NCBI GenBank assembly: GCA_963713825.1
Contig: CAVQNG010000025.1
Location: 64,001-128,000 of the forward strand
DNA length: 64,000 bases
Origin: an uncultured Acidobacteriota bacterium
GTDB taxonomy: Bacteria; Acidobacteriota; Thermoanaerobaculia; Multivoradales; JAHEKO01
Direction: 5' to 3'
Part shown: positions 10,217-47,327 of the stretch, piece by piece
How positions within the stretch are numbered: position 1 is the stretch's first letter
How the letters are laid out: the number at the start of each line of letters is the position of its first letter
The notes under the pieces: generated by a model
What the model was told of the DNA's origin: nothing
Database searches by the model: none
The model's input: only the letters and a program-made list of their open reading frames with translations
Translations under genes and position numbers: made by a program

Positions 10217-10221
10217 AGTGA

Positions 10222-11199: not shown

Positions 11200-11204
11200 C
11201 GTCT

Positions 11205-12026: not shown

Positions 12027-12027
12027 C

Positions 12028-19200: not shown

Positions 19201-19276
19201 GGGGCGGATCGGTGCCAGGAGCTGCGGTTGAAGGCTGAGGCACGTCAGCTTCTCTACGCTGTGCTTTCTCTTGCAT
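16184..19276 (-). CDS. actB: Alternative complex III subunit B (molybdopterin oxidoreductase-like domain plus Fe-S domain)
   Basis: Extended Tat leader (WRSLDEL...REFP...SRRGFL) with lipobox LTAC; [13 protein letters not shown]; Cys clusters [17 protein letters not shown]...[16 protein letters not shown]. Confidence 0.95.
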
Positions 19277-19302
19277 TCTCTATGGTGCCTTCGACTGTAA
19301 GG

Positions 19303-19950
19303 CTATCGGTGACAGACAGAGCAGCTCAAGAGGCTCTGAATGTTGTATTCCTCGACGAGCTGGGCCCCGAGGACCGATTGATTGTCGGCTACCCATTCCA
19401 TGTTGAGGATCTCACTTCTCGGTCGGACAAAATCCTGTGGCGCCCGATGGCAGTCCAGGCACCATTCCATCTGCAGCGAGACGGCTTGCCTCAACAGCGG
19501 CATCTTGTCGACCCGGCCATGGCATGTCACACAGCCCATTCCTTTGGTGACATGGATGCTGTGATTGAAATAGACGAAGTCCGGAAGATCGTTGACCCGG
19601 GCCCATTGGATCGGCTCACCACTGCGAAAACTCTCACGCACCGGCTCGAGCATGGGACTGTCATTCCAGATCAGCTTGTGACAGTTCATGCAGGTGGCCG
19701 TTGGCGGCACGCCCGCAAAGGCCGATTCCTCGACGGAGGTGTGGCAGTACAGGCAACTGATTCCCATCGCTTCGGTGTGATGATCGTGGCTGAAAGGCAC
19801 CGGTTGCGCTCGGGTGATGGTCTGTCTCGTGGCATAGGCTGATCGATTGAGGCTCACCAGGATCCAAACCGACAGAAGCAGAAAGAAGATCGCGCCAAAG
19901 AGAGTCACTTTGGCCAGCGTGTTTGTGCTGGGCTTGAAAATCTGCGACAT
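19303..19950 (-). CDS. actA: Alternative complex III pentaheme cytochrome c subunit A
   Basis: N-terminal TM and five CxxCH (CLYCH, CMNCH, CVTCH, CLDCH, CSVCH); QPVPFSH. Confidence 0.95.
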   Translation of the reverse strand: MSQIFKPSTNTLAKVTLFGAIFFLLLSVWILVSLNRSAYATRQTITRAQPVPFSHDHHTEAMGISCLYCHTSVEESAFAGVPPTATCMNCHKLIWNDSPMLEPVRESFRSGEPIQWARVNDLPDFVYFNHSIHVTKGMGCVTCHGRVDKMPLLRQAVSLQMEWCLDCHRAPQDFVRPRSEILNMEWVADNQSVLGAQLVEEYNIQSLLSCSVCHR

Positions 19951-23932: not shown

Positions 23933-24460
23933 ATGGCTGAAGAAACAACCAAGGGAAAGACTGCCGACAAGGTCACTCGCCGAGGCTTTTTTTCCTGGGC
24001 GGCGGTGGCATGGGTTGGCTTTACGGCTGCGATCGGAGGCTGCGCCACCATTCTGAATCGCTTTCTCTTCCCCAATGTGTTGTACGAGCCTCCAACGACC
24101 TTCAGGGTTGGCCAGACAGAGGATTTCAGCCCCGGGGTGGTCGACGAACGCTTCAAGGAGTCGAATGGCGTCTGGATCGTCAACAGCAATGGCAAGCTAT
24201 ACGCGCTGATCGCCATCTGCACCCACCTGGGCTGCCCTCCCAACTGGCTGGAGGCGCAGAACAAGTTCAAGTGCCCGTGTCACGGTAGTGGTTACTACAA
24301 GGATGGGATCAACTTCGAAGGTCCGACGCCCCGACCCCTCGAGCGGGCTAAGATCTTCATCGACCCCGATGATGGACAGGTAGTGGTGGACAAGTCCCAG
24401 AAGTACCAGTGGGAGCTGGGGCAATGGGAGGATCCCGAGTCGTTTGTCGAGATCGCTTGA
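23933..24460 (+). CDS. qcrA: Rieske [2Fe-2S] subunit of a Rieske/cytochrome b complex
   Basis: Tat TRRGFF plus TM; CTHLGC and CPCHGSGY; GPTPRPL. Confidence 0.95.
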
Positions 24461-24488
24461 GGCCTCGCGGCTGACTCGAGAGAAGATC

Positions 24489-25268
24489 ATGTTCAAGAAG
24501 ATCCAGAAGAGCGTCACCCAGTCGCAGGTGTGGAAGTCCATCTTCCGGGTCGGCATTCCCACCGACAATCGGAAGCGGGCGCTCGCAATGCTCGGCAATG
24601 TGGTACTGCACCTCCACCCGATCAAGGTGAAGAAGTCGGGTCTGCGAATGAGCTACACATGGTGCATGGGCGGCACGGCCTTCTTCTTGTTCCTGGTCGA
24701 GACGATCACCGGCCTACTTCTCATGTTCTATTACCGGCCGACAGTCGAGTATGCCTACTTCGACATGGTGGACCTGAGGGAGGCAGCGGCTTTCGGCATC
24801 ATGCGCGAGCTCCATCGTTGGGGTGCCCACGCCATGGTAATCGCGGTCTGGCTCCACATGTTCAGGGTGTTCATGACCGGATCCTACAAACCGCCTCGCG
24901 AGTTCAATTGGAATGTCGGTGTCATTCTCCTCGTGCTCACCCTGCTGCTGTCGTTCACAGGCTATCTCCTGCCTTGGGATCAGCTCGCTATCTGGGCCAT
25001 TACGGTGGGCTCCAACATGGCCCGGGCTACCCCGTTCGTCGGTACGGAGGGCCCGGGCGCAGCGCTATTGCAGCTTGGAGGCACGAAGCTGATTCACGTT
25101 GGCAGCGATGCGCGCTTCGCATTGATCGCCGGGCGCACCATTGGCGGGGGTACCCTCATCCGGTTCTACGTGCTGCACTGCGTCGGCATTCCTTTCGTGG
25201 CCGCCTTCCTGATCGCTGTCCATTTCTGGCGAGTGCGGAAGGACGGCGGCATCTCCGGGCCTGTCTGA
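24489..25268 (+). CDS. qcrB: Cytochrome b6-like N-terminal cytochrome b subunit
   Basis: YTWCMGG, HRWGAH...[16 protein letters not shown]-x14-H (LHC...VHF). Confidence 0.93.
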
Positions 25269-25281
25269 GCCGACGAGCGCT

Positions 25282-26361
25282 ATGGAAGCGATCAAAGATC
25301 TCATCAACTACCTGTCCTACCCGAAGTGGTCGTTCACGCTTTCGTTGGTGGTCTTCTTCGTCCTCCTGCGGTCCAAAAGGCTGTGGACCCGATCGGGTGG
25401 CCTGATGATGCTTCTGGCGAGCATCGTCACCTTCTGCCTCAGTCTGCTCGATCCGAACTTCAGAAGCGTCGTTGCGAAGCCGGACAACGTTCCCATCGTC
25501 ATGATGGTCTTTCTGGTCGGGTTCTTCCTTTGGCTCGCCATGTACAAGGCTGTCCGCAACGACGAGTTGATGGCGCGTGGTGAGCCGACTTTCGAGAAGA
25601 GCGAAGTCGAAGACAAGATCTTCACGTGGCCCGATCTGGTCTTCATCGAGTTCATCTGCATGATTCTGCTGACGGTCGGCCTGGTGATCTGGTCGATCGT
25701 GCTGCAGGCGCCGCTCGAGGAGCCGGCCAACCCCTCGGTGGCGCCGAACCCCTCCAAGGCACCCTGGTATTTCCTCGGTTTGCAGGAGATGCTGGTGTAC
25801 TTCGACCCGTGGATGGCCGGCGTCGTCCTGCCGGGGCTGATCATCGTCGGTTTGATGGCGATTCCCTATATCGATACCAATCCGAAGGGCAATGGTTACT
25901 ACACCTTCAAAGAGCGCAAGACAGAGATCGTCTTGTTTCTCTTCGGTTTCCTCGTGCTTTGGTGCCAGATGATCGTTATCGGCACCTTCCTGCGAGGGCC
26001 GAACTGGAACTTCTTTGGACCCTTCGAGTTCTGGGATGTGGAAAAGATCGAGCCATTGGTCAACGTCGATTTGTCGGAGATCATCTGGATCAAGGTCCTG
26101 GGAGTCGGCCTACCCTCCCATTGGCTGCCCCGCGAGATCTTCGGAATCATCTTGTTGGCTCTCTATATCTTCGTATTGCCGGTCGTACTCGCCAAGACGA
26201 AGGGCTTCAAGCGCTACTACGAAAAGATGGGACCGTCCCGTTTCTATATCGGAGTGAGCCTCTTTCTCGTCATGATGCTCCTGCCCATCAAGATGTACTT
26301 CCGATGGGCACTCAATCTGAAGTACTTCGTTCACATTCAGGAGTTCTTCTTCAACGTCTAG
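25282..26361 (+). CDS. Cytochrome b C-terminal / subunit IV (PetD-like), extended with extra TMs
   Basis: TWPDLV, APLEEPANP..PNPSKAPWYFLG, PYID; extra N- and C-terminal hydrophobic segments. Confidence 0.85.
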   Translation: MEAIKDLINYLSYPKWSFTLSLVVFFVLLRSKRLWTRSGGLMMLLASIVTFCLSLLDPNFRSVVAKPDNVPIVMMVFLVGFFLWLAMYKAVRNDELMARGEPTFEKSEVEDKIFTWPDLVFIEFICMILLTVGLVIWSIVLQAPLEEPANPSVAPNPSKAPWYFLGLQEMLVYFDPWMAGVVLPGLIIVGLMAIPYIDTNPKGNGYYTFKERKTEIVLFLFGFLVLWCQMIVIGTFLRGPNWNFFGPFEFWDVEKIEPLVNVDLSEIIWIKVLGVGLPSHWLPREIFGIILLALYIFVLPVVLAKTKGFKRYYEKMGPSRFYIGVSLFLVMMLLPIKMYFRWALNLKYFVHIQEFFFNV

Positions 26362-26365
26362 GGTT

Positions 26366-29302
26366 ATGACCGGTCGTCCACAGAAGAAGCCTGATCGACA
26401 CTTCGAGTTCAGCCGCCTGAACCTGTGGTTCGGCGTCAGTGCCTTGGCACTGCTCGTCGTAACACTGTGGATGGTGATGGCTGATTACTCCAAGCCCTGG
26501 AAACGGCTGCAAAGTGATTTCAGGGACCGAGAGCGTCGGGCCTTGCTGCAGCAGGCCGAAATTGAAAGGCAACAGATCGACCAGGACGATCTCCTTCAGC
26601 TTCAGCAAGAGATTTCCCAGGAGGAGGAGAGGTTCGAAGCGAGCCGTACCGAGATGCAGGAGTTGGAGCGCACTCTCGGCAAGCTGGGAAAGAAGATCTA
26701 TGCGACAGACTCGGATTCGCGGACCACGAAGTCGCTGCTCGACACAGCTCGCTGGCAGTACGACCGGGCTTTGCAGGAGGGCGACGAGGCTGCGATCGGG
26801 CAGGCCCTCGAAGCGGTGGAGGAGCTCGACGCCCAGTGGCTCGAGGATCGCAAGGCCCTGGAGCTGCTCGCCGAGCAGCGCGACCAGGTTGTCGAGTCCC
26901 TGGACCAGCGCGAAGCGGCCCTGGTGGAGGCAGAGAGCCGGTTGGCTGCGTTGCGCCAGGGGATCGATACCCTCGAGCAGCGAGCGGCGAGTCTCGACAA
27001 GTCGCTTTCCTACCGGTTGCTCAACGCTCCCCTGATGGACTTCATGAACCCCGACTTGAGGATCGAGCAGGTGATGTTGCCGGGGATGTATCACGACATC
27101 AACTTCACCAAGGTGGAGCGCGTCGATCGTTGCGTCACTTGCCACGTGGCGGCCAATCGGGTCGGTTTCGACGGCGAAGACTGGGAGCAGCCTTTCCGCT
27201 CGCACCCGAGGATGGATTTGTTCGTCGGGGCTGGCTCACCACATCCTTACAACCGATTTGGGTGCTCGGGTTGTCATGGCGGTCTCGATCGATCGACCGA
27301 CTTTGCCCGAGTCGGCCACAGCCCCTCCAGCGAAGAAGAACTGACGAGCTGGCAGGAGCATTGGGAATGGGAGCCGCAACCCTATTTGGAGACGCCGATC
27401 TATCCGGCCGAGTATTCCGAGGCCGGCTGTTTCACCTGCCATTCGGCAGAGGTCTGGACACCGGGGGCCGAAGTGCAGGATACGGGGCGCCAACTGGCGA
27501 TGCGGATGGGCTGCTTCGTCTGTCACAAGATCGACTATCCGGCCTTTCAAGACCTTCCCCGGCCTGGACCGAATCTGAGCAAGGTGGCCGGCAAGACCAC
27601 CCCAGCCTGGGCGGTCGAGTGGATCTCGGCACCGCGCGATTTCAGGCCGACGACCTGGATGCCGCACTTCTTCTTGCAGGAGAACACGACCAGCGAGCTC
27701 AATCTCCAGCGTCAGGAGATAGAGATCGTTTCGGCGGTGGCCTACCTGTGGGAGAAGTCTGAATCTCCGGAATATCCACCGCCGCCGCCTGGAGACTCGC
27801 AGGCAGGGCAGGCCCTTTTCGAGTCGGTGGGATGCACCGGCTGCCATCTCATGGATGGCGACGCGAAACGTGACGACTTCTTCCCCCAGATCAATCGCCT
27901 GCACGGGCCGAATCTCATCCGCACGGGCAGCAAGGTCTCGGCAGGCTGGCTCTACGCGTGGATCAGGGATCCCAGGAAATATGCCCCCGACACGCGGATG
28001 CCGGACCTGCGTCTGACCGATCGGGAAGCGGCCGATATCACCGCTTATCTGATGAGCAGCCGGGATCCGGCCTACGAAGACCTGGATCTGCCCGCGGTCG
28101 ATTCCGAGGTGCGTGACGAGATGGTCTTGAAGTATCTCCGCAACAACCAGACCATCGAGCAGAGTCTGGTGACGCTGGAGGAGATGACTTTTCACGACCG
28201 TGATGTCTATCTGGGTTACGAGACGATCCAGAAATACGGCTGCTGGGGCTGCCACGACCTCGCCGGATTCGAGATCGCCAAGCCCATTGGCGTCGAGCTG
28301 ACGGAAGAGGGGTCCAAGCCGCTGCACCAGTTCGACTTCGGCCATGTCCACGACGTGCCTCATACGCGGCACGACTGGATCCGCAGGAAGCTACTGAACC
28401 CCAGAACCTGGGACGAAGGCAAGGAAGCCGTCAAGCACTACGACGAGCTGCTCAAGATGCCGAACTTCGGCATGTCGGAGCGGGAGGCCGACGCCGTCGT
28501 CACCATGGTGCTCGGGTTCACCAGGGAATCCGTCGAGGCGAGCAGCCGAGCTGGGCAGACAACCCGAAGCATCTCGCTAGTCGAAGGAAGAAGGCTGATC
28601 ACCCGGTTCAACTGTCAGGGTTGTCACTTGATCGAAGGTGACGGGCACGCGATCAAGTCCGCCATCGAAGATGTGGGAATGCTGCCACCCAACCTGGCGG
28701 CACAGGGCGCTCGGGTAAAGAGCGACTGGCTCTTCGAGTACCTCCACGATCCGGGTGCAGTCCGCCTGCGCCCGTGGCTGACGGTGAGAATGCCGTCCTT
28801 CGGATTCAGCGATGACGAAGTCAATGCCCTGGTGAGCTACTTTGCGGCGCGCGAAGAACGTCTGGCTTTCCTGTCGGACCCGGCGTTGCCGGAACCGCGT
28901 GAGCTGGCGGTCGGCGATGTGGCCTTCAACATGTTCCAGTGTGCAAAATGTCATCCCGCCGGTCCGCAAGAAGACCTTGGTGCCGGTGTAGGTGCCGGCG
29001 ACCTGGCTCCGTCCCTCTTGTTGGCAAAACGGCGGCTGAGGCACGACTGGGTGCCCCATTGGATCCTGGATCCGCAGGGTTGGATTCCCGGCACCAAGAT
29101 GCCGGCGAACTTCCCCCCCCATCCTGAGGGTGGCTACACTTCGCCCCTGGCGATGGCAATCGATACGCCGATGTTCGAGCAGCAGAAGGAGCGGATGATG
29201 CGTCACTTCGCCTCGGAAGAGGAGCTCAAGACGCATCTGGGCGACGCTGACTATGTGACTCAGGCGCTGCGCGACCACATCTGGTGGAATCTGGAGGAAT
29301 AG
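26366..29302 (+). CDS. Membrane-anchored octaheme c-type cytochrome with coiled-coil stalk
   Basis: TM, long E/Q/R/L-rich helical region, 8 CxxCH (CVTCH, CSGCH, CFTCH, CFVCH, CTGCH, CWGCH, CQGCH, CAKCH). Confidence 0.9.
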   Translation: MTGRPQKKPDRHFEFSRLNLWFGVSALALLVVTLWMVMADYSKPWKRLQSDFRDRERRALLQQAEIERQQIDQDDLLQLQQEISQEEERFEASRTEMQELERTLGKLGKKIYATDSDSRTTKSLLDTARWQYDRALQEGDEAAIGQALEAVEELDAQWLEDRKALELLAEQRDQVVESLDQREAALVEAESRLAALRQGIDTLEQRAASLDKSLSYRLLNAPLMDFMNPDLRIEQVMLPGMYHDINFTKVERVDRCVTCHVAANRVGFDGEDWEQPFRSHPRMDLFVGAGSPHPYNRFGCSGCHGGLDRSTDFARVGHSPSSEEELTSWQEHWEWEPQPYLETPIYPAEYSEAGCFTCHSAEVWTPGAEVQDTGRQLAMRMGCFVCHKIDYPAFQDLPRPGPNLSKVAGKTTPAWAVEWISAPRDFRPTTWMPHFFLQENTTSELNLQRQEIEIVSAVAYLWEKSESPEYPPPPPGDSQAGQALFESVGCTGCHLMDGDAKRDDFFPQINRLHGPNLIRTGSKVSAGWLYAWIRDPRKYAPDTRMPDLRLTDREAADITAYLMSSRDPAYEDLDLPAVDSEVRDEMVLKYLRNNQTIEQSLVTLEEMTFHDRDVYLGYETIQKYGCWGCHDLAGFEIAKPIGVELTEEGSKPLHQFDFGHVHDVPHTRHDWIRRKLLNPRTWDEGKEAVKHYDELLKMPNFGMSEREADAVVTMVLGFTRESVEASSRAGQTTRSISLVEGRRLITRFNCQGCHLIEGDGHAIKSAIEDVGMLPPNLAAQGARVKSDWLFEYLHDPGAVRLRPWLTVRMPSFGFSDDEVNALVSYFAAREERLAFLSDPALPEPRELAVGDVAFNMFQCAKCHPAGPQEDLGAGVGAGDLAPSLLLAKRRLRHDWVPHWILDPQGWIPGTKMPANFPPHPEGGYTSPLAMAIDTPMFEQQKERMMRHFASEEELKTHLGDADYVTQALRDHIWWNLEE

Positions 29303-29436
29303 CAGTTGAATCAGCTGGTAACAGGCGGCACACGCTCTGGGCTCATGGCATAATGCGCGGCTCGCGCCGCTGTGGTGCCAATTCGAAGGGGCGTCCACTC
29401 GAAGTACCGAAACCGATTTGAAGGAGGCTTGAACGT

Positions 29437-30234
29437 ATGAAGAAGATTTCGATTCTGATGGCAATTGCCTTGATTCCTGCCCTGCTGGTAGTGGGCTGTG
29501 GTGGCGGCGAGCAGGCGGCCGCACCCGACAAACAAGCAGAGACCGCACCGGCCGCGGCGCCAGGGCCAGCGGCGACCGGTGGTGGCACGATCGCGGGCAG
29601 TGCGAAGTACGTCAATGGTGATCCGGATGCCGCTATCGCGATGGACGCAGATCCTGTCTGCGCTTCCATGCACCCCGGGGAGGTCCACACGAAGAAGGTC
29701 GTTACGGACGATGCTGGCAATCTGGCCAATGTCTTCGTCTATGTGAAGTCCGGATTGGAGGGTAAGAGCTACCCCACGCCGAGTAGCGCCCACGTTCTCG
29801 ACCAGGTGGGCTGTCAGTACTCGCCGCACGTAAGCGGGGTTCAAGTTGGGCAGAAGCTGGTCATCCGCAATAGCGACCCGACCCTGCACAATGTTCACGC
29901 CCGACCAACCACCAACAAGGAGTTCAACCAGGGGCAGCCGTTCCAGGGCATGGAACTGGAACACACGTTTGATAAGGCAGAAGTAATGGTGCCGTTCAAG
30001 TGCGACGTGCATCCTTGGATGAGCTCGTACATGGCGGTTGTGGATCATCCGTTCTTCGGCATCTCCAGTGAGCAGGGTGGGTTCGAAATCGAGAACCTGC
30101 CTGCCGGTAGCTACGTGCTCGAGGCCTGGCACGAAGAGTTCGGGACTCAGACTGTGGAGGTCACCTTAGTGGACGGTGAGCCAGCCCAGGTGAGCTTCGA
30201 CTTTTCGCCTGGTGCTGTAGCCTCGGCCGGCTGA
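29437..30234 (+). CDS. Lipoprotein with cupredoxin-like and carboxypeptidase-regulatory-like domains
   Basis: LVVGC lipobox, Ala/Pro linker, LHNVH and CDVHPWM, C-terminal LPAGSYVLEAWHE. Confidence 0.75.
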   Translation: MKKISILMAIALIPALLVVGCGGGEQAAAPDKQAETAPAAAPGPAATGGGTIAGSAKYVNGDPDAAIAMDADPVCASMHPGEVHTKKVVTDDAGNLANVFVYVKSGLEGKSYPTPSSAHVLDQVGCQYSPHVSGVQVGQKLVIRNSDPTLHNVHARPTTNKEFNQGQPFQGMELEHTFDKAEVMVPFKCDVHPWMSSYMAVVDHPFFGISSEQGGFEIENLPAGSYVLEAWHEEFGTQTVEVTLVDGEPAQVSFDFSPGAVASAG

Positions 30235-30255
30235 GGCTTCCGTTCGATGTTTGGT

Positions 30256-30290
30256 GGGGCAGGGTCATGACGGCCCTGCCCCTCTTTTCG
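30256..30290 (+). terminator. Rho-independent terminator
   Basis: GGGGCAGGG...CCCTGCCCC stem followed by TCTTTTCGTTTCTT, 22 nt after the stop. Confidence 0.75.
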
Positions 30291-30394
30291 TTTCTTCGTC
30301 AGCGAGCAGAAAATCGGACGGCGCTGCAGGTGGTCGCGATAGACTGACGCCGTTTGAATTGCGATTCACTCTTCTGGGAGGAGATTGACCTACC

Positions 30395-31390
30395 ATGACG
30401 AGCGACACACCGTTCCTGCGCGGCATCCATCGCCTCGCTGTCCTACTGGCCGGGTATGTGGTGTTGCTGATCACCGCTGGCGGCTTGGTGAAGAGTTTGG
30501 AGGCTGGTCTTTCGGTTCCCGATTGGCCGCTCTCGTACGGCATGCTGAATCCACCCCGATGGTGGGAGATCGAGACGGTGCGGGCGGAGCATGGGCACCG
30601 ATTGATCGCCGGCACGGTGCTGCTGCTGACCTTGTGGCTGGTGATCTGGATCGTTCGGCGAGAGCCGCGAAAGTGGGTGAAGGGGGTTGCCTTGACCGCC
30701 TTCGCAGCAGTCTTGGCCCAGGCCGCACTGGGCGGTATCACAGTGCTCTTCTTCCTACCGACTGCGATCTCGGTCAGTCACGCCGGTCTTGCTCAGCTCT
30801 TCCTCTGTCTGTTGGTGGTGCTTGCCGTGGCCACTTCACGCCGCTGGGTCTCCGATCGCGGTCCCACAGATCCGGCCACCAGAGCCGATAGGATCGTCAG
30901 TCTGGCGACGGCTACCTCGGTCGTCATCTATCTGCAGATTCTGCTGGGCGCCGTCATGCGGCATACCGGCGCGGGCCTGGCGATCCCCGACTTTCCGCTC
31001 GCCTTCGGCGGGCTCATTCCCTCCAAGCTCGATTTCGCCATTGGCATCCACTTCGCCCATCGGCTGGGCGCTCTGGCGGCGGCGACACTGATCTTCTGGA
31101 CCCTGGGTCGGACACTGCGATTTGCGAGTCGGGAGCGAGCTCTTGTCATCCCGACCTGTCTGCTGGTCCTCATGGTCCTGGTCCAAGGCACCCTCGGGGG
31201 ATTGGTAGTGCTGACGAGTAGAGCGGTGCTGCCCAATACCCTGCATGTCGGAGGCGGAGCCCTGCTGCTAGCTCTCAGCATGACGCTGACGCTACTGACC
31301 AGACGCCTGGATTGGGTGGCTCGGCAGGAGGGAGTCGTCCCCGAGGTAGAAGCTGTCGGAGTCCATCGGTTGGAGCAGGCCGTATCGTGA
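30395..31390 (+). CDS. ctaA: Heme A synthase (COX15/CtaA)
   Basis: AGLSVPDWP, EHGHR, SHA, AIPDFP, HFAHR, LHV; 8 TMs. Confidence 0.9.
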   Translation: MTSDTPFLRGIHRLAVLLAGYVVLLITAGGLVKSLEAGLSVPDWPLSYGMLNPPRWWEIETVRAEHGHRLIAGTVLLLTLWLVIWIVRREPRKWVKGVALTAFAAVLAQAALGGITVLFFLPTAISVSHAGLAQLFLCLLVVLAVATSRRWVSDRGPTDPATRADRIVSLATATSVVIYLQILLGAVMRHTGAGLAIPDFPLAFGGLIPSKLDFAIGIHFAHRLGALAAATLIFWTLGRTLRFASRERALVIPTCLLVLMVLVQGTLGGLVVLTSRAVLPNTLHVGGGALLLALSMTLTLLTRRLDWVARQEGVVPEVEAVGVHRLEQAVS

Positions 31391-32286
31391 GCAGCCCCGC
31401 TGTGCTCGATTCCAAGTCTGTCTCGCTCGGTGTGCGCCTGGCGGACCTGGTCGAGCTCATGAAGCCTCGGATCACCCTGATGGTGGTCCTGACGACCGGC
31501 ATCGGAGTCTTGCTCAGCTCGGGTGGAAGCGTGGACCTGAGTCTCGCCGCTCATGCCCTGCTCGGGACCGGGTTGGTGGCAGCGGGGTCGGCAGCCCTGA
31601 ATCATGTCCTCGAACGGGACCTGGATGCGCTGATGGAGCGCACCGCTGATCGTCCCCTACCGACGGGCAGAATGGACCCCGATTCAGCCTTGCTCTTCGG
31701 TGTCGGCCTGGCAGTCGCCGGACTTCTCGAGCTGACTCTGACGGTCAACCTTCTGACCGCCCTGCTGGGGGCCGTCGCTCTGGCTGGCTATATTTTCGTC
31801 TACACGCCAATGAAGCGCGTCAGCTCCCTGGCGACGATCGTAGGCGCGATCCCGGGAGCCTTGCCGCCGCTCATGGGCTGGACCGCGGTGAGCGATCGCC
31901 TGGAATTGGGTGGGATCGTGCTCTTCGCGATCCTTTTTCTCTGGCAGTTGCCGCACTTTCTGGCCATTGCCTGGATGTGTCGCGAGGACTACTCGCGGGC
32001 CGGAATCCCCGTCTTGCCGGTCGTGGAGCCCGATGGTCGCAGCACCGCTCGTCAGATGATGCTGTACGGTGCGGCACTTCTTCCCGTGAGTCTGCTGCCG
32101 ACGGTACTGGGATTGACTGGCGGCACCTACTTCATCGGGACGCTGGCTCTGGGATGTTTCTTCCTCGCGGTCTGCGTGTCGTTCGCGCTGTCATTCTCGA
32201 CCGGTGCAGCTCGCAGAGTGCTGCTGGTATCGGTGCTGTATCTTCCGGCTGTACTGGTGGTCATGGTTCTCGACCGGGTCGCCTGA
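31387..32286 (+). CDS. ctaB: Protoheme IX farnesyltransferase (heme O synthase)
   Basis: LMKPRI, ERDLDALMERTADRPLP, YTPMKR, WQLPHF; GTG start overlaps the ctaA stop. Confidence 0.95.
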   Translation: MSSPAVLDSKSVSLGVRLADLVELMKPRITLMVVLTTGIGVLLSSGGSVDLSLAAHALLGTGLVAAGSAALNHVLERDLDALMERTADRPLPTGRMDPDSALLFGVGLAVAGLLELTLTVNLLTALLGAVALAGYIFVYTPMKRVSSLATIVGAIPGALPPLMGWTAVSDRLELGGIVLFAILFLWQLPHFLAIAWMCREDYSRAGIPVLPVVEPDGRSTARQMMLYGAALLPVSLLPTVLGLTGGTYFIGTLALGCFFLAVCVSFALSFSTGAARRVLLVSVLYLPAVLVVMVLDRVA

Positions 32287-40220: not shown

Positions 40221-40876
40221 GCATCGGCTCGGTGGTCCTGTTGGCCGCGTCGATGGCACCCGGAGCCAGCTGGGCGGCCGATTCGCCAGAAACTGTCTCC
40301 TTTTCCACGGCGGACGGAGGGGAGATCCATGCTCACCTATACGGCGGGGGAGGGCACGCAGTCGTGCTCGCCCACGGCAAGGTGTTTGACAAGGAGAGCT
40401 GGCAGCCACTGGCGAGCTACTTGAGCGGCAGGGGACTCCAGGTCCTGGCCCTGGACTTCAGGGGTTACGGTGACTCGACTCCGGGTGAAGAGGAGGGGGC
40501 ACTCTGGCTGGACGTGGTGGCGGCGGCGGGTTTTCTTCGCCACCGCGGTGCCCAACGAATCTCGGCACTGGGCGCGAGCATGGGAGGTGGCGCCGTGGCT
40601 CGAGCGAGCGTCGAAGCTCCCACGGGCACCTTCTTCAAAGTGATTCTTCTGGCCGCGGCGCCAATCGCCGCGGCCGATCGAATGAAGGCGAACTCCTTCT
40701 TGTTTGTCGTCAGTCGCGAGGAGCCCCTGTTGCCGCGGGTGAGAGAACAGTTCGAGCAGGCTCCGGAGCCCAAGCGCCTCGAGATCCTCGAAAGCAGTGC
40801 CCACGCCCAGCATGTCTTCCGCACAGACCAGGCCGACGTCCTGACACAACTGATCGTCGACATGTTGGCTGATTGA
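40175..40876 (+). CDS. Exported alpha/beta hydrolase
   Basis: Signal peptide, LAHG, DFRGYG, GASMGG nucleophile elbow, HAQ; start uncertain. Confidence 0.8.
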   Translation: MSGLAGHRRALLPALSIGSVVLLAASMAPGASWAADSPETVSFSTADGGEIHAHLYGGGGHAVVLAHGKVFDKESWQPLASYLSGRGLQVLALDFRGYGDSTPGEEEGALWLDVVAAAGFLRHRGAQRISALGASMGGGAVARASVEAPTGTFFKVILLAAAPIAAADRMKANSFLFVVSREEPLLPRVREQFEQAPEPKRLEILESSAHAQHVFRTDQADVLTQLIVDMLAD

Positions 40877-41149
40877 TTCACCGCACCTTGAGGTAGAACT
40901 CCTGGGTAAGAGTCCAGGATCTCTTGGAGGCCCGTCCGGGGTAGTCCGCAGGTGCTGGGCCCATGCCCATCTGGCCGTTGTCGAGGGGTCCGACGCGGGG
41001 CCCCCAGGGGGCTATCCTCCCTATCCACAGCAACCAACCCCCTGGAGGTCCCCACGCCGAACCCTGGATGTCCCTGGATCACGGGTCCCTCTAGGCCCTT
41101 ACGCCTCTGAGCCCTCATTGCTCCACTGCCTTACTGCCACAGAGGTGCC

Positions 41150-41356
41150 AGAGGTTCGTCCGGGTGGTTCGACAGGGGGTGCCGAGTCGAGCGCGGCGCA
41201 AGGACCACGAACGAGCACGACAGATGAGGCGCGATGACGAGACAAGGTGGCGACCCCCTGAATGTAGGGGAGGGGCTTGCCCCCTCCCGCGGGAGCCCGC
41301 AAGGGGCTCCTACATAGCCGACACCGTCCCGCTGCGAACCACCCGGACGAACCTCT
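41150..41356. mobile_element. MITE-like 207-bp element bounded by 22-bp perfect terminal inverted repeats
   Basis: AGAGGTTCGTCCGGGTGGTTCG (41150-41171) is the exact reverse complement of CGAACCACCCGGACGAACCTCT (41335-41356); non-coding interior; no clear target duplication. Confidence 0.55.
41262..41315. repeat. GTAG-class REP doublet (REPIN-like)
   Basis: GTAG-GGGAGGGG-cttgc-CCCCTCCC on plus and GTA-GGAGCCC-cttgc-GGGCTCC (also beginning GTAG) on minus, inverted; outer ATGTAGG/CCTACAT complementary. Confidence 0.7.
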
Positions 41357-41638
41357 ACGAGAAGAGGGTCATCTGCCCCGGGGTCCAGAGCCTTGGTGCC
41401 CCAAGCCCTCAAAGACCGGCTGACACGAAGTGCTGCCGGCTCAACCCCCAAGCCCCAGAGACCGGCCGGGAGGTACGACCGGGCGCCTCAACCCTGTCTG
41501 CTTGCAGGCAGTGAATGCATTGTCATACACTCCGGCCACCAAAACTCGATCCAGTCCGTTGGGCAGAACCGACGGTTGAGGGCCGAAGGTCGGTGGATGG
41601 GTGTCGTCCGTCGCGGTCAGTCAGACAAGGAGTCGCTG

Positions 41639-43405
41639 ATGAGTGCTAGCGAAGCGCAGGCTGTCGGGGTGGAAGAACCCGGAGCCGAGCACCACGAGCT
41701 GCCGTTCTGGCAGCGCTACATCTTCTCGCAGGACCACAAGGTCATCGGGCTCCAGTACGGGTTCACCGCTCTTTGCTTCTTGCTGTTTGGCTTCAGCCTG
41801 ATGCTGATGATGCGTTGGCAGCTGGCCTATCCAGGTCGGCCTGTGCCGATCATCGGCGGTCTACTCGGCAGCGCCAATGCTCCCGGTGGCATCATGCTGC
41901 CCGAGTTCTACAACCAGCTGGGAGCGATGCACGGCACTGTCATGGTGTTCCTGGCGGTCGTTCCCCTGCTGGTGGGTGCCTACGGCAACTACCTCGTCCC
42001 CCTTCAGATTGGTGCTCCCGACATGGCGTTTCCGAAGCTGAACATGGCCAGCTACTGGTGCTACCTGCCAGGTGGCCTCATCATGCTGGCCAGCTTCTTC
42101 GTACCAGGTGGAGCCGCCAATTCGGGTTGGACCTCGTATCCGCCGCTTTCCAATATCGCCACCTCGGGTCAAACATGGTGGTTGGTGGGGATGATCTTCC
42201 TGATCACCTCGTCGCTGCTGGGCTCGGTGAATTTCATCGTCACCATCTTCCAGTTGCGCGCCGAAGGACTGGACTTCATGCGGCTGCCGATGTTCGTCTG
42301 GTCGCAGCTGGTGACGTCATTTCTGTTGCTGCTGGCCTTTCCACCCTTGGAAGCGGCGGGCATTCTCCAACTGATGGATCGGGTGGCGGGTACCAGCTTC
42401 TTCATGCCCAGCGGTCTGGTCGTCAGTGGTGAGGTCCTGGAGATAGCCGGCGGTGGCAACCCATTGCTGTGGCAGCATCTCTTCTGGTTCCTGGCGCATC
42501 CAGAGGTCTACGTTCTGATTCTGCCGGCAATGGGAATCGTCGCGGAGGTGATAGCCAACAACACCCGCAAACCGCTTTGGGGCTACAAGGCGATGGTCTA
42601 CTCAGCCGTCTTCCTGGGCTTCATGTCGTTCATCGTCTGGGCGCATCACATGTTCCTGACCGGCATGGGTACGGCGATCAGTTCGTTCTTCCAGACCACC
42701 ACCATGATCATCTCCGTTCCGTCGGTGGTCATTCTTTCAGCGCTATTGATCTCCCTCTGGGGCGGTTCCATACGGTTCAACACCCCAATGCTCTTTGCGT
42801 TGGCTTTCCTGCCGATGTTCGGTGTCGGCGGGCTCACCGGCCTCCCTCTCGGGCTGGCTCCGAGCGATATCCACCTGCATGACACCTACTACGTCATTGG
42901 GCATTTTCACTACGTCGTGGCCCCCGGCACGATCTTCGCGATCTTCGCTGGAATCTACTACTGGTTCCCGAAGATCACCGGCAGAATGATGAGTGAGCGC
43001 CTGGGCAAGCTCCACTTCTGGCCATCCCTGATATTCATGAATGGGATCTTCATGCCGATGTTCGTCCAGGGACTGGCCGGAGTGTCCAGGAGACTGTACG
43101 ACGGCGGAGCCCAGTATTCCCACGCCCAGGGCGTGCTGCACTGGAATCTCTTCATGTCGGTGTCGGCGTTCGGTCTTCTCATCGCCCAGATCCCCTTCAT
43201 CATCAACCTCTTCGTGAGCATCAAGAAGGGCGTCAAGGTCGGTTCAAATCCCTGGGACGCCACGACGCTGGAATGGGTCGCCGCGCCTTCGCCGCCTGTC
43301 GCTCATGGCAACTTCCCGGAGCTGCCGGTCGTTACCCGCGGACCCTACGAATACAGCCCACCAGAATCGGACGAGGGCTATCTGCCCCAGAACGCCGTGG
43401 CTTGA
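41639..43405 (+). CDS. ctaD: Second heme-copper oxidase subunit I (A1-like, lacking the K-channel Lys)
   Basis: DHKVIG, PDMAFPKLN, WFLAHPEVY, WAHHMF, HDTYY..HFHY; AAGGAG RBS before ATG 41639. Confidence 0.95.
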   Translation: MSASEAQAVGVEEPGAEHHELPFWQRYIFSQDHKVIGLQYGFTALCFLLFGFSLMLMMRWQLAYPGRPVPIIGGLLGSANAPGGIMLPEFYNQLGAMHGTVMVFLAVVPLLVGAYGNYLVPLQIGAPDMAFPKLNMASYWCYLPGGLIMLASFFVPGGAANSGWTSYPPLSNIATSGQTWWLVGMIFLITSSLLGSVNFIVTIFQLRAEGLDFMRLPMFVWSQLVTSFLLLLAFPPLEAAGILQLMDRVAGTSFFMPSGLVVSGEVLEIAGGGNPLLWQHLFWFLAHPEVYVLILPAMGIVAEVIANNTRKPLWGYKAMVYSAVFLGFMSFIVWAHHMFLTGMGTAISSFFQTTTMIISVPSVVILSALLISLWGGSIRFNTPMLFALAFLPMFGVGGLTGLPLGLAPSDIHLHDTYYVIGHFHYVVAPGTIFAIFAGIYYWFPKITGRMMSERLGKLHFWPSLIFMNGIFMPMFVQGLAGVSRRLYDGGAQYSHAQGVLHWNLFMSVSAFGLLIAQIPFIINLFVSIKKGVKVGSNPWDATTLEWVAAPSPPVAHGNFPELPVVTRGPYEYSPPESDEGYLPQNAVA

Positions 43406-43423
43406 GGAGAACAGAGGAAAGTC

Positions 43424-44014
43424 ATGCAGATCCCCTACACCGTCGAGCAGCGCCCTGATACAGGCCTTTACAACGCCAAGCTGGGCGTGTGGCTCTTCCT
43501 GGCCTCTGAAGTCATGTTGTTTGGGGCTTTGTTCTCGGCCCTCATTCTCCTGCGAACGGGTGCAACCACCTGGCCACATGGCTATGAAGTGCTGAATGTC
43601 CCGTTGGCGACGATGAACACCATGGTGCTCATCACCTCGTCCGTCTCGATGGTCATGTCATGGGCGGCGCTGCGCCTCGGCGACTTCGGCCGATACCGCA
43701 AGTGGATGGGCCTGACTTTTGTGCTCGGACTCGTGTTCATGGTCATCAAGAGCATCGAGTACGCCGCCAAGTTCGAGCACCATCTGTATCCGTCTCACGA
43801 CAATTTCATGGCCACCTATTTCACCCTGACTGGTCTGCATGGTCTGCATGTTCTGGGCGGCATGATCGTTATTGGCTATCTGCTCGGGCCGGGAAGCAAG
43901 ATGTGGAAGTCGGAGCCCGAGCGGTTTACCAATCGAGTCGAGGTGGTCGGGCTGTACTGGCATTTCGTGGATCTGGTCTGGATCTTTCTTTTCCCCACCC
44001 TTTACCTGCTGTAG
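43424..44014 (+). CDS. ctaE: Cytochrome c oxidase subunit III (second copy)
   Basis: WLFLASEVMLFG, TGLHGLHV, YWHFVDLVW. Confidence 0.93.
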   Translation: MQIPYTVEQRPDTGLYNAKLGVWLFLASEVMLFGALFSALILLRTGATTWPHGYEVLNVPLATMNTMVLITSSVSMVMSWAALRLGDFGRYRKWMGLTFVLGLVFMVIKSIEYAAKFEHHLYPSHDNFMATYFTLTGLHGLHVLGGMIVIGYLLGPGSKMWKSEPERFTNRVEVVGLYWHFVDLVWIFLFPTLYLL

Positions 44015-44033
44015 TGGGTAGGAGGAGGCGTCG

Positions 44034-44333
44034 ATGAGTGGACACAGTGTCGAGGAGATCAGAAAGGAAACCAGGGTCTACGTTCTGGTCTTCGTAGCCC
44101 TTGCAGTGTTGACGCTCGTCACGGTGGGCGTCAGCTACCTGCACCTGAGCTTCGGCGCCGCGGTGGCCCTGGCTCTGTTCATTGCTTCGATCAAGGGCAC
44201 CCTCGTGGCCGCCTTCTTCATGCATCTGATCTCGGAGAGGAAGCTAGTCGTCGCGGTGCTGGTTCTGACCGCGATCTTCTTTGTCGCTTTGATGCTTCTG
44301 CCCCTGGGTGGCTACGTCGACAGGCTGCGCTGA
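44034..44333 (+). CDS. ctaF: Cytochrome c oxidase subunit IV (second copy)
   Basis: Three TMs, IKGTLVAAFFMHL. Confidence 0.85.
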   Translation: MSGHSVEEIRKETRVYVLVFVALAVLTLVTVGVSYLHLSFGAAVALALFIASIKGTLVAAFFMHLISERKLVVAVLVLTAIFFVALMLLPLGGYVDRLR

Positions 44334-44335
44334 TC

Positions 44336-44539
44336 ATGTTGTCTCTGCGGAGCTTTCACGTTGTCTTCATCGTGGCCTCGATTCTCCTGTCTCTGGGGGT
44401 CGGAGCTTGGGGCGCACAGCAGTACCTGCAGCGATCGAGCACTCAGGGCTTGGCAATGGCGGTGATCTTCTTCCTGACGGCGATACTGCTGGCGCTGTAT
44501 GCCCTGCGGTACTTCGGCAAACTGAGGAGGCTCGAGTAG
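44336..44539 (+). CDS. Small two-TM membrane protein in the oxidase operon
   Basis: 67 aa, SLRSFHVVFI then two hydrophobic helices; 2-3 nt spacing to neighbours. Confidence 0.65.
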   Translation: MLSLRSFHVVFIVASILLSLGVGAWGAQQYLQRSSTQGLAMAVIFFLTAILLALYALRYFGKLRRLE

Positions 44540-44542
44540 GAA

Positions 44543-44851
44543 ATGCGGCGCACCGATTCGACCTCGACTCGCAAGAACAAGGGATCAGCCGCGGCAAGAT
44601 GGATCGCGGTACCCATGGCTCTACTCGCGGCGCTGGCCTTGTCGCAGTCCGCCGCCGCCTGTGCTGTTTGCTATGGCGCCGAAGATTCGGCCATGACAGC
44701 TGGAGTGAATAACGCGATTCTCCTGCTACTGGGAGTGGTGGCCTTGGTCCAAGGTAGCTTTGCGGCGCTGTTCCTGTCTCTTCGTCAGCGTGCCCGTCGA
44801 GCACGGAGCCAGGCCAAGGGACAGCGACCGTCGATTGGAGGGACCCTCTAG
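44543..44851 (+). CDS. Small exported/membrane protein with CxxC (ACAVCYG)
   Basis: Signal-like segment ending SAAA, then CAVCYG, then one TM; stop abuts the ctaC ATG. Confidence 0.65.
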   Translation: MRRTDSTSTRKNKGSAAARWIAVPMALLAALALSQSAAACAVCYGAEDSAMTAGVNNAILLLLGVVALVQGSFAALFLSLRQRARRARSQAKGQRPSIGGTL

Positions 44852-45652
44852 ATGCACTCGATACTGAGCCGATGGCTTCCCGAGAACGCCGCCGCACACG
44901 GTGCGGAGATCGACCGCATCATGGTCATGGTGCATTGGCTGATGCTCTTACTCTTCGTCGGGTGGAGTCTCTACTTCATCTACGTCCTGTTTCGGTTTCG
45001 GGCCGGTAGAAACCCCAAGGCGAGCTATACCGGGGTCAAGAGCCACTTCTCTTCGTACTTGGAAGGAGGCGTCGTCCTGGCGGAGGCCATCCTTCTGATC
45101 GGCTTCGCCATTCCGGCCTGGGCACGATGGGTAACCCCCCATGCGCCGGAAGCAGATGCCCTGCAGGTCAGGGTTGTTGCTGAGCAATTTGCCTGGAACG
45201 TTCACTACCCGGGTCCCGATGGCGTCTTTGGGAGTGCCGATATCAATCTCATCGATGCGGCCAACCCCTTGGGTTTGGATCGGCAGGATCCCTTTGCCAA
45301 GGACGACGTGACGACGATCAATCAACTCCATTTGCCTGTCAATCGAGCCGTCACGGTTCTGCTGTCCAGCAAGGATGTGATTCACAGTTTCTTCCTCCCG
45401 GTCATGCGGGTCAAACAGGACACGATCCCGGGAATGGAGATACCGGTTCGCTTCGTACCTGTGGCCACGACGCCAGAGGAGGCACAGCTGCCTGGCTGCG
45501 CGGCCAACGTTTCCTGTTGGGAGATCGCTTGTGCTCAGTTGTGTGGTCTCGGCCACTACCGGATGCGAGGTTTCTTCCAGGTGCACTCACAGGCCGACTT
45601 CGACCTTTGGATGGATCAGCAGGTCAAGAAGCTGGCACCGGCCACGAGCTGA
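44852..45652 (+). CDS. ctaC: Cytochrome c oxidase subunit II (second copy, no fused cytochrome c)
   Basis: Two TMs, QFAW, DVIHSF, CAQLCGLGHYRM CuA motif. Confidence 0.92.
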   Translation: MHSILSRWLPENAAAHGAEIDRIMVMVHWLMLLLFVGWSLYFIYVLFRFRAGRNPKASYTGVKSHFSSYLEGGVVLAEAILLIGFAIPAWARWVTPHAPEADALQVRVVAEQFAWNVHYPGPDGVFGSADINLIDAANPLGLDRQDPFAKDDVTTINQLHLPVNRAVTVLLSSKDVIHSFFLPVMRVKQDTIPGMEIPVRFVPVATTPEEAQLPGCAANVSCWEIACAQLCGLGHYRMRGFFQVHSQADFDLWMDQQVKKLAPATS

Positions 45653-45727
45653 TCGGCTTTTCTGCTGACGGCGACCTTCTCGCAGCTGCTGCAGAGCGGG
45701 AGACCTGGGGGCAGGTATGATCGGCGC

Positions 45728-46150
45728 ATGCCTGATCTATCGACGCTGCCCACTGTCAATGCGTTGCTGAATGGTCTGAGCGGCACCTTTCTGGTGGCTG
45801 GCTACTGGCTGATCCGGCAACGCAAGATCGGAGCTCACAAGGCCAGTATGCTGGCTGCCTTCGCCTGCTCCATCCTGTTTCTCGTCAGCTACCTCTTCTA
45901 CCATTCGCAGGTGGGTTCCGTTCGATTCCAGGGAACGGGAATGCTGAGGACGTTCTACCTGGGGGTCCTGTTGACCCATTCGGTGCTGGCGGCTGCCGTA
46001 CCGATCCTGGCGGTGATTACGCTGACTCGGGCGCTACGGGGTCGATTCGACAAGCACGCGGAGATTGCTCGCTGGACGTTGCCGATCTGGCTCTATGTGT
46101 CCGTCACCGGCGTCCTCGTGTACTGGATGCTCTACCACCTGTCGATCTGA
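45728..46150 (+). CDS. DUF420 family membrane protein (YozB/CtaM-like oxidase assembly factor)
   Basis: LPTVNALLN, AHKASM, FLVSY..YH, THSVLA, H..IARWT.PIWLYVSVTG. Confidence 0.85.
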   Translation: MPDLSTLPTVNALLNGLSGTFLVAGYWLIRQRKIGAHKASMLAAFACSILFLVSYLFYHSQVGSVRFQGTGMLRTFYLGVLLTHSVLAAAVPILAVITLTRALRGRFDKHAEIARWTLPIWLYVSVTGVLVYWMLYHLSI

Positions 46151-46157
46151 CGAGATC

Positions 46158-47327
46158 TTACAGGTCCTGCGTGTCTCCAGATTGGAGTCGGAGTGTGAGG
46201 AACCTCGCCAACTCATCGGCAGCCAGTGCATGACCGGCTCGGGTCCAGTGCCGATCGAGTCGAAAGTACAACTCCTCGCCCCGGGACAGACCCGTGACGA
46301 AGGGTGGTCCGAGGTCGAGAGTCGGAATCTCGTGGCGGTCGAGCAATTCCTGGAAGATCCGAGTTGGAGTCGAAGGGTCGTAGTCGGCTGGGTCGACGGC
46401 CAAACTGGTGAGACTCATCTGCCAACGTTCGGGCTCGAGTTGGATCTCGCTCGGGATCAGAACGGCGACGAGCTCGAAACCGAGCTCCTCGGATAGCTCC
46501 GTGAATCTTCCGAGAGCTTCATCCGTGGCGTCGATCGCCGGGCGTAGCTCCTGTTCGGCCGACTTCCTGTAGACGCCGAGCTCCTCCCTGAGCGTCCTGG
46601 TTTTCCATGGCTCTCCCAGACCCAGCTTGTCACGGAGAGGCTGGAAGCCGGGCTGGTCGAGCAAGCTCTTGGCAGCCACAAAAAGATGGGAGTGGCGGTG
46701 CAGCCAAGCTTTGATGCCACCAGCGGACTGGCTGGGGACCAGCAACCCGTCGACGAGCAGAATCTCCTCGCGGTCTGGTGACGCGTCCACCAGATCGTTG
46801 CCCAGGAAGATCGCCAGAACGACGATGTCCGGCTCCAACGCGACACCATGTCGTCGGAGCCAGCTCTCCGCGTCGGGCACACCGAAGGCCGGGGTGCCGG
46901 CGTTCAGACCCTCAGCTGCGGTTCGGTCGTGTCGCGCGAGTCGGGCTGGAAGCAGGGCGGTGAACGTCTCTGTATCCTCGACTCCGACGCCGAAAACGAA
47001 CGAGTCTCCGACGACCAGTACTCTCAGGATCTCGTCGGACGAGGAACCGACCTCAGGGCCTCGAAGCCCGGCCTGGTTGATCCGGATCTCGTTCGAGTAC
47101 TCCGCGCGGTTGTAGATGTTGCCGCGATACCCCGGTGACAGTCGGTAGCGCCCTGGTGGATCGGGAATGTAGAAGCCACCAGGCTCGATGACCAACCTGG
47201 GCTGCGGCCGCGCCAGTCGAACCAGGATCTCGGCGGCAGCCAGGCTCAGAACCAGAGATACGGCAAGCGTGATCGCCGGCACGAGGAGCGTCTTCAGCAG
47301 GCTCTGGCGTCGCGTTGGGAGAGGCAT
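46158..47327 (-). CDS. SGNH/GDSL hydrolase family membrane-anchored protein
   Basis: N-terminal TM, INQAGLRG, VGDSFVFG, GND, DRHW. Confidence 0.85.
   Translation of the reverse strand: MPLPTRRQSLLKTLLVPAITLAVSLVLSLAAAEILVRLARPQPRLVIEPGGFYIPDPPGRYRLSPGYRGNIYNRAEYSNEIRINQAGLRGPEVGSSSDEILRVLVVGDSFVFGVGVEDTETFTALLPARLARHDRTAAEGLNAGTPAFGVPDAESWLRRHGVALEPDIVVLAIFLGNDLVDASPDREEILLVDGLLVPSQSAGGIKAWLHRHSHLFVAAKSLLDQPGFQPLRDKLGLGEPWKTRTLREELGVYRKSAEQELRPAIDATDEALGRFTELSEELGFELVAVLIPSEIQLEPERWQMSLTSLAVDPADYDPSTPTRIFQELLDRHEIPTLDLGPPFVTGLSRGEELYFRLDRHWTRAGHALAADELARFLTLRLQSGDTQDL

Follow-up and report, generated by a model that had tools for sequence, protein, structure and literature searches.

How does a mitochondrial-type heme-copper oxidase work without the lysine of its K-channel, a textbook essential residue of these enzymes? 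The question is posed by coxI (41639–43405), which encodes subunit I of an A1-type heme-copper oxidase in a 64,000-nucleotide stretch of DNA from an uncultured acidobacterium (contig CAVQNG010000025.1 of GCA_963713825.1, positions 64,001–128,000, forward strand), hereafter the window. Coordinates are those of the window, and features lie on its forward (+) strand unless marked otherwise. An earlier note on this DNA had proposed that coxI belongs to a natural subfamily without the lysine (K-less), which either routes its protons another way or has another role, such as low turnover or the handling of peroxide or nitric oxide (NO). The reading that we favor, and consider probable, is that the operon at 41639–46150 encodes a working O2-reducing aa3-type cytochrome c oxidase in which a buried glutamate of subunit II, Glu78, would serve as the lysine's stand-in.

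Loss of the lysine was established by aligning coxI to subunit I of Rhodobacter sphaeroides (1m56_A) with phmmer. The alignment is gapless over query residues 308–410 and pairs K362 of R. sphaeroides with I365 of coxI; T359, S299, H300 and G283 pair with S362, A302, E303 and A286. Read directly from the DNA, the codon of Ile365 (42731–42733) is ATT, as the earlier note had it; two base changes separate ATT from any lysine codon. The caa3-type paralogue in the window has lysine at the K362 position, its helix VIII reading as previously described. Of the canonical K-channel residues (K362, T359, S299 and subunit II E101), coxI has I365, S362 and A302 at the three subunit I positions, so that the only remnants are the entrance glutamate of subunit II, E71, and the serine at the T359 position. 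The description of the lysine as near-invariant in these oxidases went too far, because 34 of 131 sequences outside the clade also lack it in a sample biased toward relatives of coxI.

The rest of the catalytic machinery is in place. All of the named subunit I motifs were found: the D-channel entry PDMAFPKLN (residues 127–135, 42017–42043, with D128 and N135), LAHPEVY (285–291), HH (336/337) and HFH (422–424). The HPEVY segment (42497–42511) supplies the CuB ligand His287, the D-channel Glu289 and the cross-link Tyr291, and is invariant in 86 of 86 clade sequences. D128 is Asp in 75 of the 81 clade sequences with a letter at that position and N135 is kept in 78 of 82; together with N117, they match D132, N139 and N121 of R. 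sphaeroides. All six histidine ligands (H98, H287, H336, H337, H422 and H424) are present, as are the Mg-site His/Asp and the arginine pair. The alanine that precedes the CuB histidine is real but unremarkable, since this position is Ala in 67 and Gly in 19 of 86 clade sequences, and Gly in 77 and Ser in 20 of 97 lysine-containing relatives. We conclude that coxI truly lacks the K-channel lysine and that its O2-reducing site and D-channel are intact. In four deeper members of the clade (P0125, P0127, P0131 and L031), the D-channel entry Asp is replaced by Ser, Ala, Arg or Gly while HPEVY is kept; these proteins would therefore have neither canonical channel entry.

These features also fix the class of the enzyme. 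A PF00115 fold, six histidine ligands, a cross-link Tyr in helix VI, the HPEVY Glu and a D-channel together identify type A1. The D-channel and E289 set coxI apart from the B family, and Tyr291, the CuB histidine triad and the D-channel set it apart from the NO reductases (cNOR, qNOR, eNOR and others).

Is the missing lysine peculiar to this gene? Among coxI and its 120 closest homologues (73–99% identical), the lysine position is Ile or Val in 120 of 121 sequences, the remaining one falling outside the search pattern. In a set of 80 loci drawn from species-representative genomes, the lysine is absent from all 47 that are at least 57% identical to coxI and present in 32 of the 33 at 51% or less. 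A further scan seeded with a verrucomicrobial member added 79 loci, every one of them K-less, with carriers that include the cultured Chthoniobacter flavus Ellin428, Methylacidiphilum sp. Yel and strain LP2A. For residue comparisons we used 86 clade and 97 lysine-containing subunit I sequences: position 365 is Ile in 70, Leu in 10 and Val in 6 of the former and Lys in all 97 of the latter. Matches at 57% identity or more, assigned by identity and not site by site, were present in 67 of 301 sampled Acidobacteriota genomes (65 without the unpublished genomes G086 and G189).

To place these sequences, maximum-likelihood trees of 72 and 77 rows were built in quick LG+G4 searches, with support from the Shimodaira–Hasegawa-like approximate likelihood ratio test (SH-aLRT) and no bootstrap. 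In both trees the K-less clade forms a single branch with SH-aLRT support of 100 and a stem of 0.28 (31 of 72 and 30 of 77 rows), and its neighbors are lysine-containing groups of Gemmatimonadota, Planctomycetota, Bacteroidota and Acidobacteriota. At least seven changes of lysine state are needed on the 72-row tree and six on the 77-row tree, in which the starred branches force three. Clade members are labeled Acidobacteriota (Thermoanaerobaculia and Vicinamibacteria), Verrucomicrobiota, Planctomycetota, Marinimicrobia, Hydrogenedentota and Ignavibacteriota; some labels of metagenome-assembled genomes (MAGs), for example Enterobacteriaceae and Bifidobacteriaceae, look mistaken.

Ratios of nonsynonymous to synonymous substitution (dN/dS) estimated by the Nei-Gojobori method were 0.06–0.23 for the 15 closest clade pairs. 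For pairs that include coxI of the window they were 0.10–0.19 in five of the six closest, dS being saturated in the sixth. The subfamily proposed in the earlier note thus exists: the K-less clade is large, spans several phyla, is under purifying selection and always replaces the lysine with Ile, Leu or Val. That the substitution could instead be a private mutation, a sequencing error or a mark of a decaying pseudogene is scarcely conceivable, given the two base changes that separate it from lysine, an open frame, a K-less site in every clade member examined, close homologues included, and dN/dS well below 1.

Helix II of subunit II and three helices of subunit I (VIII, IX and X) enclose the K-channel (available text of PMC6115622 and PMC9961948). 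In the clade, the subunit I part of this wall is systematically rewritten, with polar K-channel residues lost and new hydroxyls gained. At position 302 (S299 of R. sphaeroides; A302-E303, 42542–42547), Ala is found in 67 of 86 clade sequences, whereas Ser is found in 95 of 97 lysine-containing relatives. Position 368 (S365 in R. sphaeroides) is Ala in 60 of 86 clade sequences, compared to Asn in 58 and Ser in 36 of 97 relatives. Conversely, helix VIII of coxI (S359-V-P-S362-V-V-I365-L-S367, 42713–42739) carries two hydroxyl positions specific to the clade: S359, present in 86 of 86 clade sequences where all 97 relatives have Ala or Gly, and S/T367, likewise in 86 of 86, where 91 of 97 relatives have Phe. 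S330 is also universal in the clade (86/86; Gly in 77 and Ser in 20 of the relatives). Altogether, 23 of the 41 clade-specific positions of subunit I fall in residues 285–431, which cover helices VI–X and bound the K-channel. E303, a Glu in 85 of 86 clade sequences, was considered as a clade-specific replacement for the lysine and rejected: Glu is also the commonest residue there in the lysine-containing relatives (29 of 97).

On the other side of the channel, subunit II offers a candidate for the missing protonatable group. Glu71 (45062–45064) aligns with the K-channel entrance Glu, E101 of R. sphaeroides subunit II, in phmmer alignments to 1m56_B and 2yev_B, and is Glu in 36 of 42 clade subunit II sequences. 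Seven residues, or two helical turns, deeper in helix 2 lies a second, buried glutamate, Glu78 (45083–45085), which is Glu in 41 and Asp in one of 42 clade sequences and Pro, Thr or Val in 31 of 31 lysine-containing loci. All 64 valid verrucomicrobial subunit II sequences have it, a count in which five one-column alignment shifts were recognized and one wrong open reading frame (ORF; L196) was dropped. It is retained in five clade members that lack E71. No position of helix 2 is more conserved than E78, which is offset by 18 degrees from the helix's conservation moment and shares a face with E71. Because it sits on the conserved face of helix 2, and helix II of subunit II borders the K-channel, we propose E78 as a mid-channel protonatable group. 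It would lie at about the depth of the missing lysine and could relay protons from the cytoplasmic entrance by way of S/T367, S362 and S359 to Tyr291. The K-route would then have been rebuilt rather than lost, with the D-channel operating as usual.

Alternatively, the K-route might have been abolished altogether, the D-channel supplying all chemical and pumped protons and E78 having a structural role in helix packing or lipid contact. Full retention of the D-channel and Glu289 is compatible with this account, as is the hydrophobic character of the lower K-channel of subunit I (I365, A302 and A368). We nevertheless think it unlikely. Packing is a poor explanation for a mid-membrane acid on a conserved helix face that is Glu in 106 of 107 subunit II sequences and Asp in the other, and the upper K-path is lined by new hydroxyls. 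Moreover, the engineered K362M exchange leaves almost no activity even though the D-channel is untouched.

The comparison was widened to all loci in which both subunits were readable, scoring where in helix 2 an Asp or Glu first follows the entrance column. Each of the 123 K-less loci has such an acid between +1 and +16, whereas none of the 84 lysine-containing loci has one before +17. Within the K-less set it is at +7 in 99 loci, +11 in one (L076), +14 in one and +16 in fifteen; seven more loci, at +1, +6 or +8, were read as one-column shifts of +7, which was checked for the five at +1. The pairing of lysine loss with a buried subunit II acid is suggestive, not statistical. We tentatively extend it to the possibility that in K-less A-family oxidases the K-channel relay has moved from the lysine of subunit I to a buried Glu or Asp of subunit II, a generalization that we hold with less confidence than the reading of the window's own operon.

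The +16 group corresponds to a second K-less lineage, of Myxococcota/Bacteriovoracaceae type (L234–L243, L245–L248, L250, L253, L261 and L262), in which the lysine is replaced by Leu, Val, Phe or Met. Its members include the cultured Pyxidicoccus caerfyrddinensis and a Myxococcus sp. In subunit II of this lineage the entrance Glu is gone, and a longer helix 2 contains a buried Asp that is conserved within V-D-G. In an approximately unbiased (AU) test, a tree joining this lineage to the clade was not rejected (p 0.515), the constrained tree being 0.72 log-likelihood units better; the Myxococcota-type lineage may therefore be sister to the clade. The L076 locus, from a Candidatus Acidoferrum MAG, has Leu in place of lysine, no entrance Glu and a buried Glu at about +11. 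It represents an independent loss of the lysine, because it is nested among lysine-containing acidobacterial relatives with support of 99–100. A single origin of all K-less forms, L076 included, was rejected (p-AU 2e-73, for a group chosen after the tree had been seen).

Two other sources of comparators were uninformative. The L086–L093 regions, which adjoin other PF00115 matches, were set aside as tests of convergence because they are only 22–25% identical to coxI and lie outside the A family. When genomes were scanned with P0141, a K-less representative, the scan recovered only lysine-containing gammaproteobacterial oxidases at 33–39% identity. Among the 150 nearest representatives of 50%-identity clusters, 12 have Gln at the lysine position and others have His, Glu, Met or Thr (variants include P0167, P0182, P0185, P0192, P0207 and P0216); the Gln forms are mostly about 840 residues long and look like fused enzymes of subunits I and III.

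Does an oxidase of this kind support respiration? Model enzymes that lose the lysine no longer turn over with O2, and the host genome also encodes a canonical caa3 oxidase, so that the K-less enzyme might be non-respiratory: a low-turnover enzyme, a handler of H2O2 or NO, or a sensor. The host has just two PF00115 genes, coxI and the caa3 paralogue, together with one weak cytochrome bd-like match (35 bits). In five of five single-contig genomes that are 98–100% complete, the coxI-clade enzyme is the only PF00115 match; three of these genomes belong to the order of the window and two to another acidobacterial family, and in the latter two no match to PF01654 (cytochrome bd) was found. All five loci were inspected, and each has the K-less site and the D-channel motif in coxI, the same operon, and both glutamates (E..E) in subunit II. 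Of 37 other clade-carrying genomes, nine have a single PF00115 match, and none of the five tested among these nine has cytochrome bd.

A coxI-clade enzyme can thus be the only terminal oxidase of a genome. As the sole heme-copper oxidase in five genomes, two of them without cytochrome bd or any other recognizable terminal oxidase, it is most likely a working respiratory oxidase rather than an enzyme for peroxide or NO. These genomes are a strong argument that the clade enzyme sustains aerobic respiration, O2 respiration by the carriers being what we infer. The alternative role raised in the earlier note is accordingly not supported, and we regard a non-respiratory enzyme as very unlikely. The genes beside coxI encode subunits III and IV and a subunit II with CuA, and coxI itself keeps the cross-link Tyr, CuB, Glu289 and the D-channel. 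NO reductases, as described in the available part of PMC11214002, lack the cross-link Tyr and a conserved D-channel and have an FeB site with a Glu ligand.

In eight verrucomicrobial genomes (G015, G020, G023, G028, G030, G031, G033 and G034), a very divergent PF00115 gene (106–256 bits) lies 2–8 kb from the K-less gene. The coxI gene of Methylacidiphilum sp. Yel (L180) is an orphan, with no coxII or coxIII within 5 kb and housekeeping genes as neighbors, and the same genome has a second clade-like copy.

Several points weigh against a working oxidase with Glu78 as the lysine's stand-in. The predicted placement of E78 relative to I365 follows from sequence periodicity and from the general architecture of such oxidases. 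The hydroxyls S322 and S330 are present in some lysine-containing relatives too. Since the AU test does not reject joining the clade and the Myxococcota-type lineage, the link between lysine loss and a buried acid is based on two events whose independence is robust, and possibly on a third. The acid of the Myxococcota-type lineage is at about +16 and not +7, so that the two lineages may not share one mechanism. Completeness is not reported for the 37 genomes behind the nine-of-37 count.

How does the enzyme compare to oxidases already described? With the canonical A1 aa3 enzymes of R. sphaeroides (1M56) and Paracoccus denitrificans (1AR1/1QLE), coxI has in common the metal ligands, the cross-link Tyr, the D-channel, Glu286, the Mg site and the arginine pair, and the operon likewise encodes a CuA subunit II and subunits III and IV. 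It differs in the replacements K362 to Ile, S299 to Ala and S365 to Ala, in the new hydroxyls S359, S/T367 and S330, in the second buried Glu of subunit II, in a Gln within the CuA motif and in the gene order I-III-IV-orfX-II. A 12-residue insert before helix VI also distinguishes coxI from the canonical enzymes and is found in some lysine-containing relatives.

A close precedent is an A1 subclade with a "KC channel," reported for Elusimicrobia, Ca. Calescamantes and Methylacidiphilaceae (Degli Esposti et al. 2021, PMC8239418, Table_3 and Data_Sheet_2, in the parts available). Like the window enzyme, it is of A1 type without the canonical lysine (PMC8239418). The row for Elusimicrobia GWA2_38_7 in that study, Y A I S C E G I S S, agrees at eight of ten positions with Y A I S A E G M S S of the window enzyme. 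A Methylacidiphilum sp. Yel copy falls inside the clade on the 77-row tree, although L180 differs from the row of the paper at four of ten positions. Judged from residue patterns in the table and from the place of that copy on the tree, the window enzyme may belong to this subclade. The study (PMC8239418) covered few taxa, read the pattern as a "KC" channel like that of the C family and scored COX2 for the entrance Glu only.

A-family COX1 proteins without the lysine have also been described in acidophilic iron oxidizers, Thioclava and archaea (bioRxiv 10.1101/2020.03.01.968255 and PMC8239418, as far as their available text goes). According to the accessible portion of the preprint (bioRxiv 10.1101/2020.03.01.968255), the A2-type forms of iron oxidizers and Thioclava resemble the window enzyme in replacing the lysine with Ile or another hydrophobic residue and in keeping the D-channel. 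They differ from it in being of type A2, in having lost the entrance Glu of subunit II and in belonging to other branches (available parts of the preprint and of PMC8239418, Table_3). A K-type channel that is lined with hydroxyls and contains no lysine, with an entrance Glu in subunit II, is found in the B-family enzyme ba3 of Thermus thermophilus (PMC11214002, available text). The ba3 enzyme matches coxI only at E about 1e-5, and neither the D-channel nor Glu286, which are kept here, is present in the B family.

The full-text literature that we searched, which excludes subscription journals, contained no biochemical study of the clade or of a second buried Glu in subunit II. The earlier note had allowed that the variant might already be characterized; this is so in that it has been catalogued from sequences (PMC8239418, Table_3), and not so biochemically. 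The window gene is probably a new member of a lineage already catalogued in this way, with no biochemistry in the literature searched.

What does the operon around coxI encode? The coxI frame (41639–43405) translates without a stop into 588 residues and scores 466.9 bits against PF00115; homologues 99% identical are likewise 588 residues long, which supports the start codon. Its best Protein Data Bank reference by phmmer is 1m56_A of R. sphaeroides (E 1.6e-118, about 400 bits across the full length). Against the CtaD_CoxA equivalog model TIGR02891, it scores 592.6 bits, under the cut-off of 670.75. NCBI records give many clade proteins the name "cbb3-type cytochrome c oxidase subunit I" though they are A-family, aa3-type enzymes, and these names arise because the proteins score under that cut-off.

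Downstream of coxI are coxIII (43424–44014), a short five-helix form of 196 residues (PF00510, 74.3 bits) that adjoins coxI in related loci, and coxIV (44034–44333), which encodes a caa3-type subunit IV of 99 residues (PF03626, 44.6 bits; TIGR02229, 46.5 bits, above the cut-off of 37.25). A small membrane protein of 102 residues, orfX (44543–44851), is encoded directly upstream of coxII here and in related loci. No Pfam or NCBIfam family matched orfX. Its 26 alignable sequences show a signal-like start that ends in a lipobox-like L-A-A-C and is followed by an invariant C-x-x-C-[FY]-G; a single helix and a basic tail complete the protein, which might be an additional subunit or might help to handle copper.

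The coxII gene (44852–45652) encodes a CuA subunit of 266 residues with no cytochrome c domain (PF00116, 32.8 bits). Its CuA ligands H178, C227, C231, H235 and M238 are all present and invariant in 30 of 30 sequences. Within the CuA motif CAQLCGLGHYRM (45530–45565), Gln replaces the usual Glu of C-S-E-L-C, the Mg/Mn ligand in model enzymes. All 41 clade sequences that can be read at this column have the Gln, compared to Glu in 23 of 31 lysine-containing loci. Since subunit II has every CuA ligand and no cytochrome c domain, the product of the operon is an aa3-type cytochrome c oxidase and not a quinol oxidase; subunit II also scores far under the cut-offs of the CyoA and QoxA models, and the quinol oxidases bo3 and aa3-600 have a subunit II that lacks the CuA ligands. 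The operon closes with a gene for a DUF420 protein of 140 residues (45728–46150; PF04238, 146.9 bits), which lies 3' of coxII in several related loci.

Gene order is itself part of the identity of the clade. The arrangement coxI-coxIII-coxIV-orfX-coxII-DUF420 of the window recurs as coxI-coxIII-coxIV-(orfX)-coxII, with DUF420 after coxII in several loci, whereas lysine-containing relatives have the usual order coxII-coxI-coxIII. In a minority of clade members, mostly labeled Planctomycetota, coxII is instead upstream. A promoter and terminator scan of 40800–46500 returned nothing exceeding shuffled controls. A cupredoxin gene directly 5' of coxI was considered and rejected: the ORFs there (40465–41118 and 41131–41451, −) are rich in Arg and Pro, match no family and look spurious.

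Beyond this operon, the window holds caa3/alternative complex III, Rieske/cytochrome b/multihaem cytochrome c and heme A synthesis gene sets. The caa3-type subunit I paralogue with the lysine (8591–10225, −) scores 506 bits against PF00115 and 689 bits, above the cut-off, against TIGR02891, and its cluster adjoins alternative complex III genes (8591–19950, −). At 23933–32286 (+), a Rieske/cytochrome b cluster and a 978-residue multihaem cytochrome c are followed by ctaA, ctaB, an ABC transporter and SCO1. Three respiratory modules therefore lie within one 64-kb window.

For annotation, the consequence is that genes of this clade fall under the CtaD equivalog cut-off and are mislabeled "cbb3-type" in public databases. 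For the biology of the family, a large, constrained K-less lineage is a natural experiment on the route by which chemical protons reach the active site. The interesting part of the proposal is that the relay Glu would be donated by subunit II, an idea that is directly testable because cultured carriers exist (Chthoniobacter flavus Ellin428, Methylacidiphilum sp. Yel and the myxobacterium Pyxidicoccus). If it is true, a carboxylate of a neighboring subunit would gate proton delivery in the reductive half of the cycle, and the "essential lysine" would be one of at least two interchangeable solutions.

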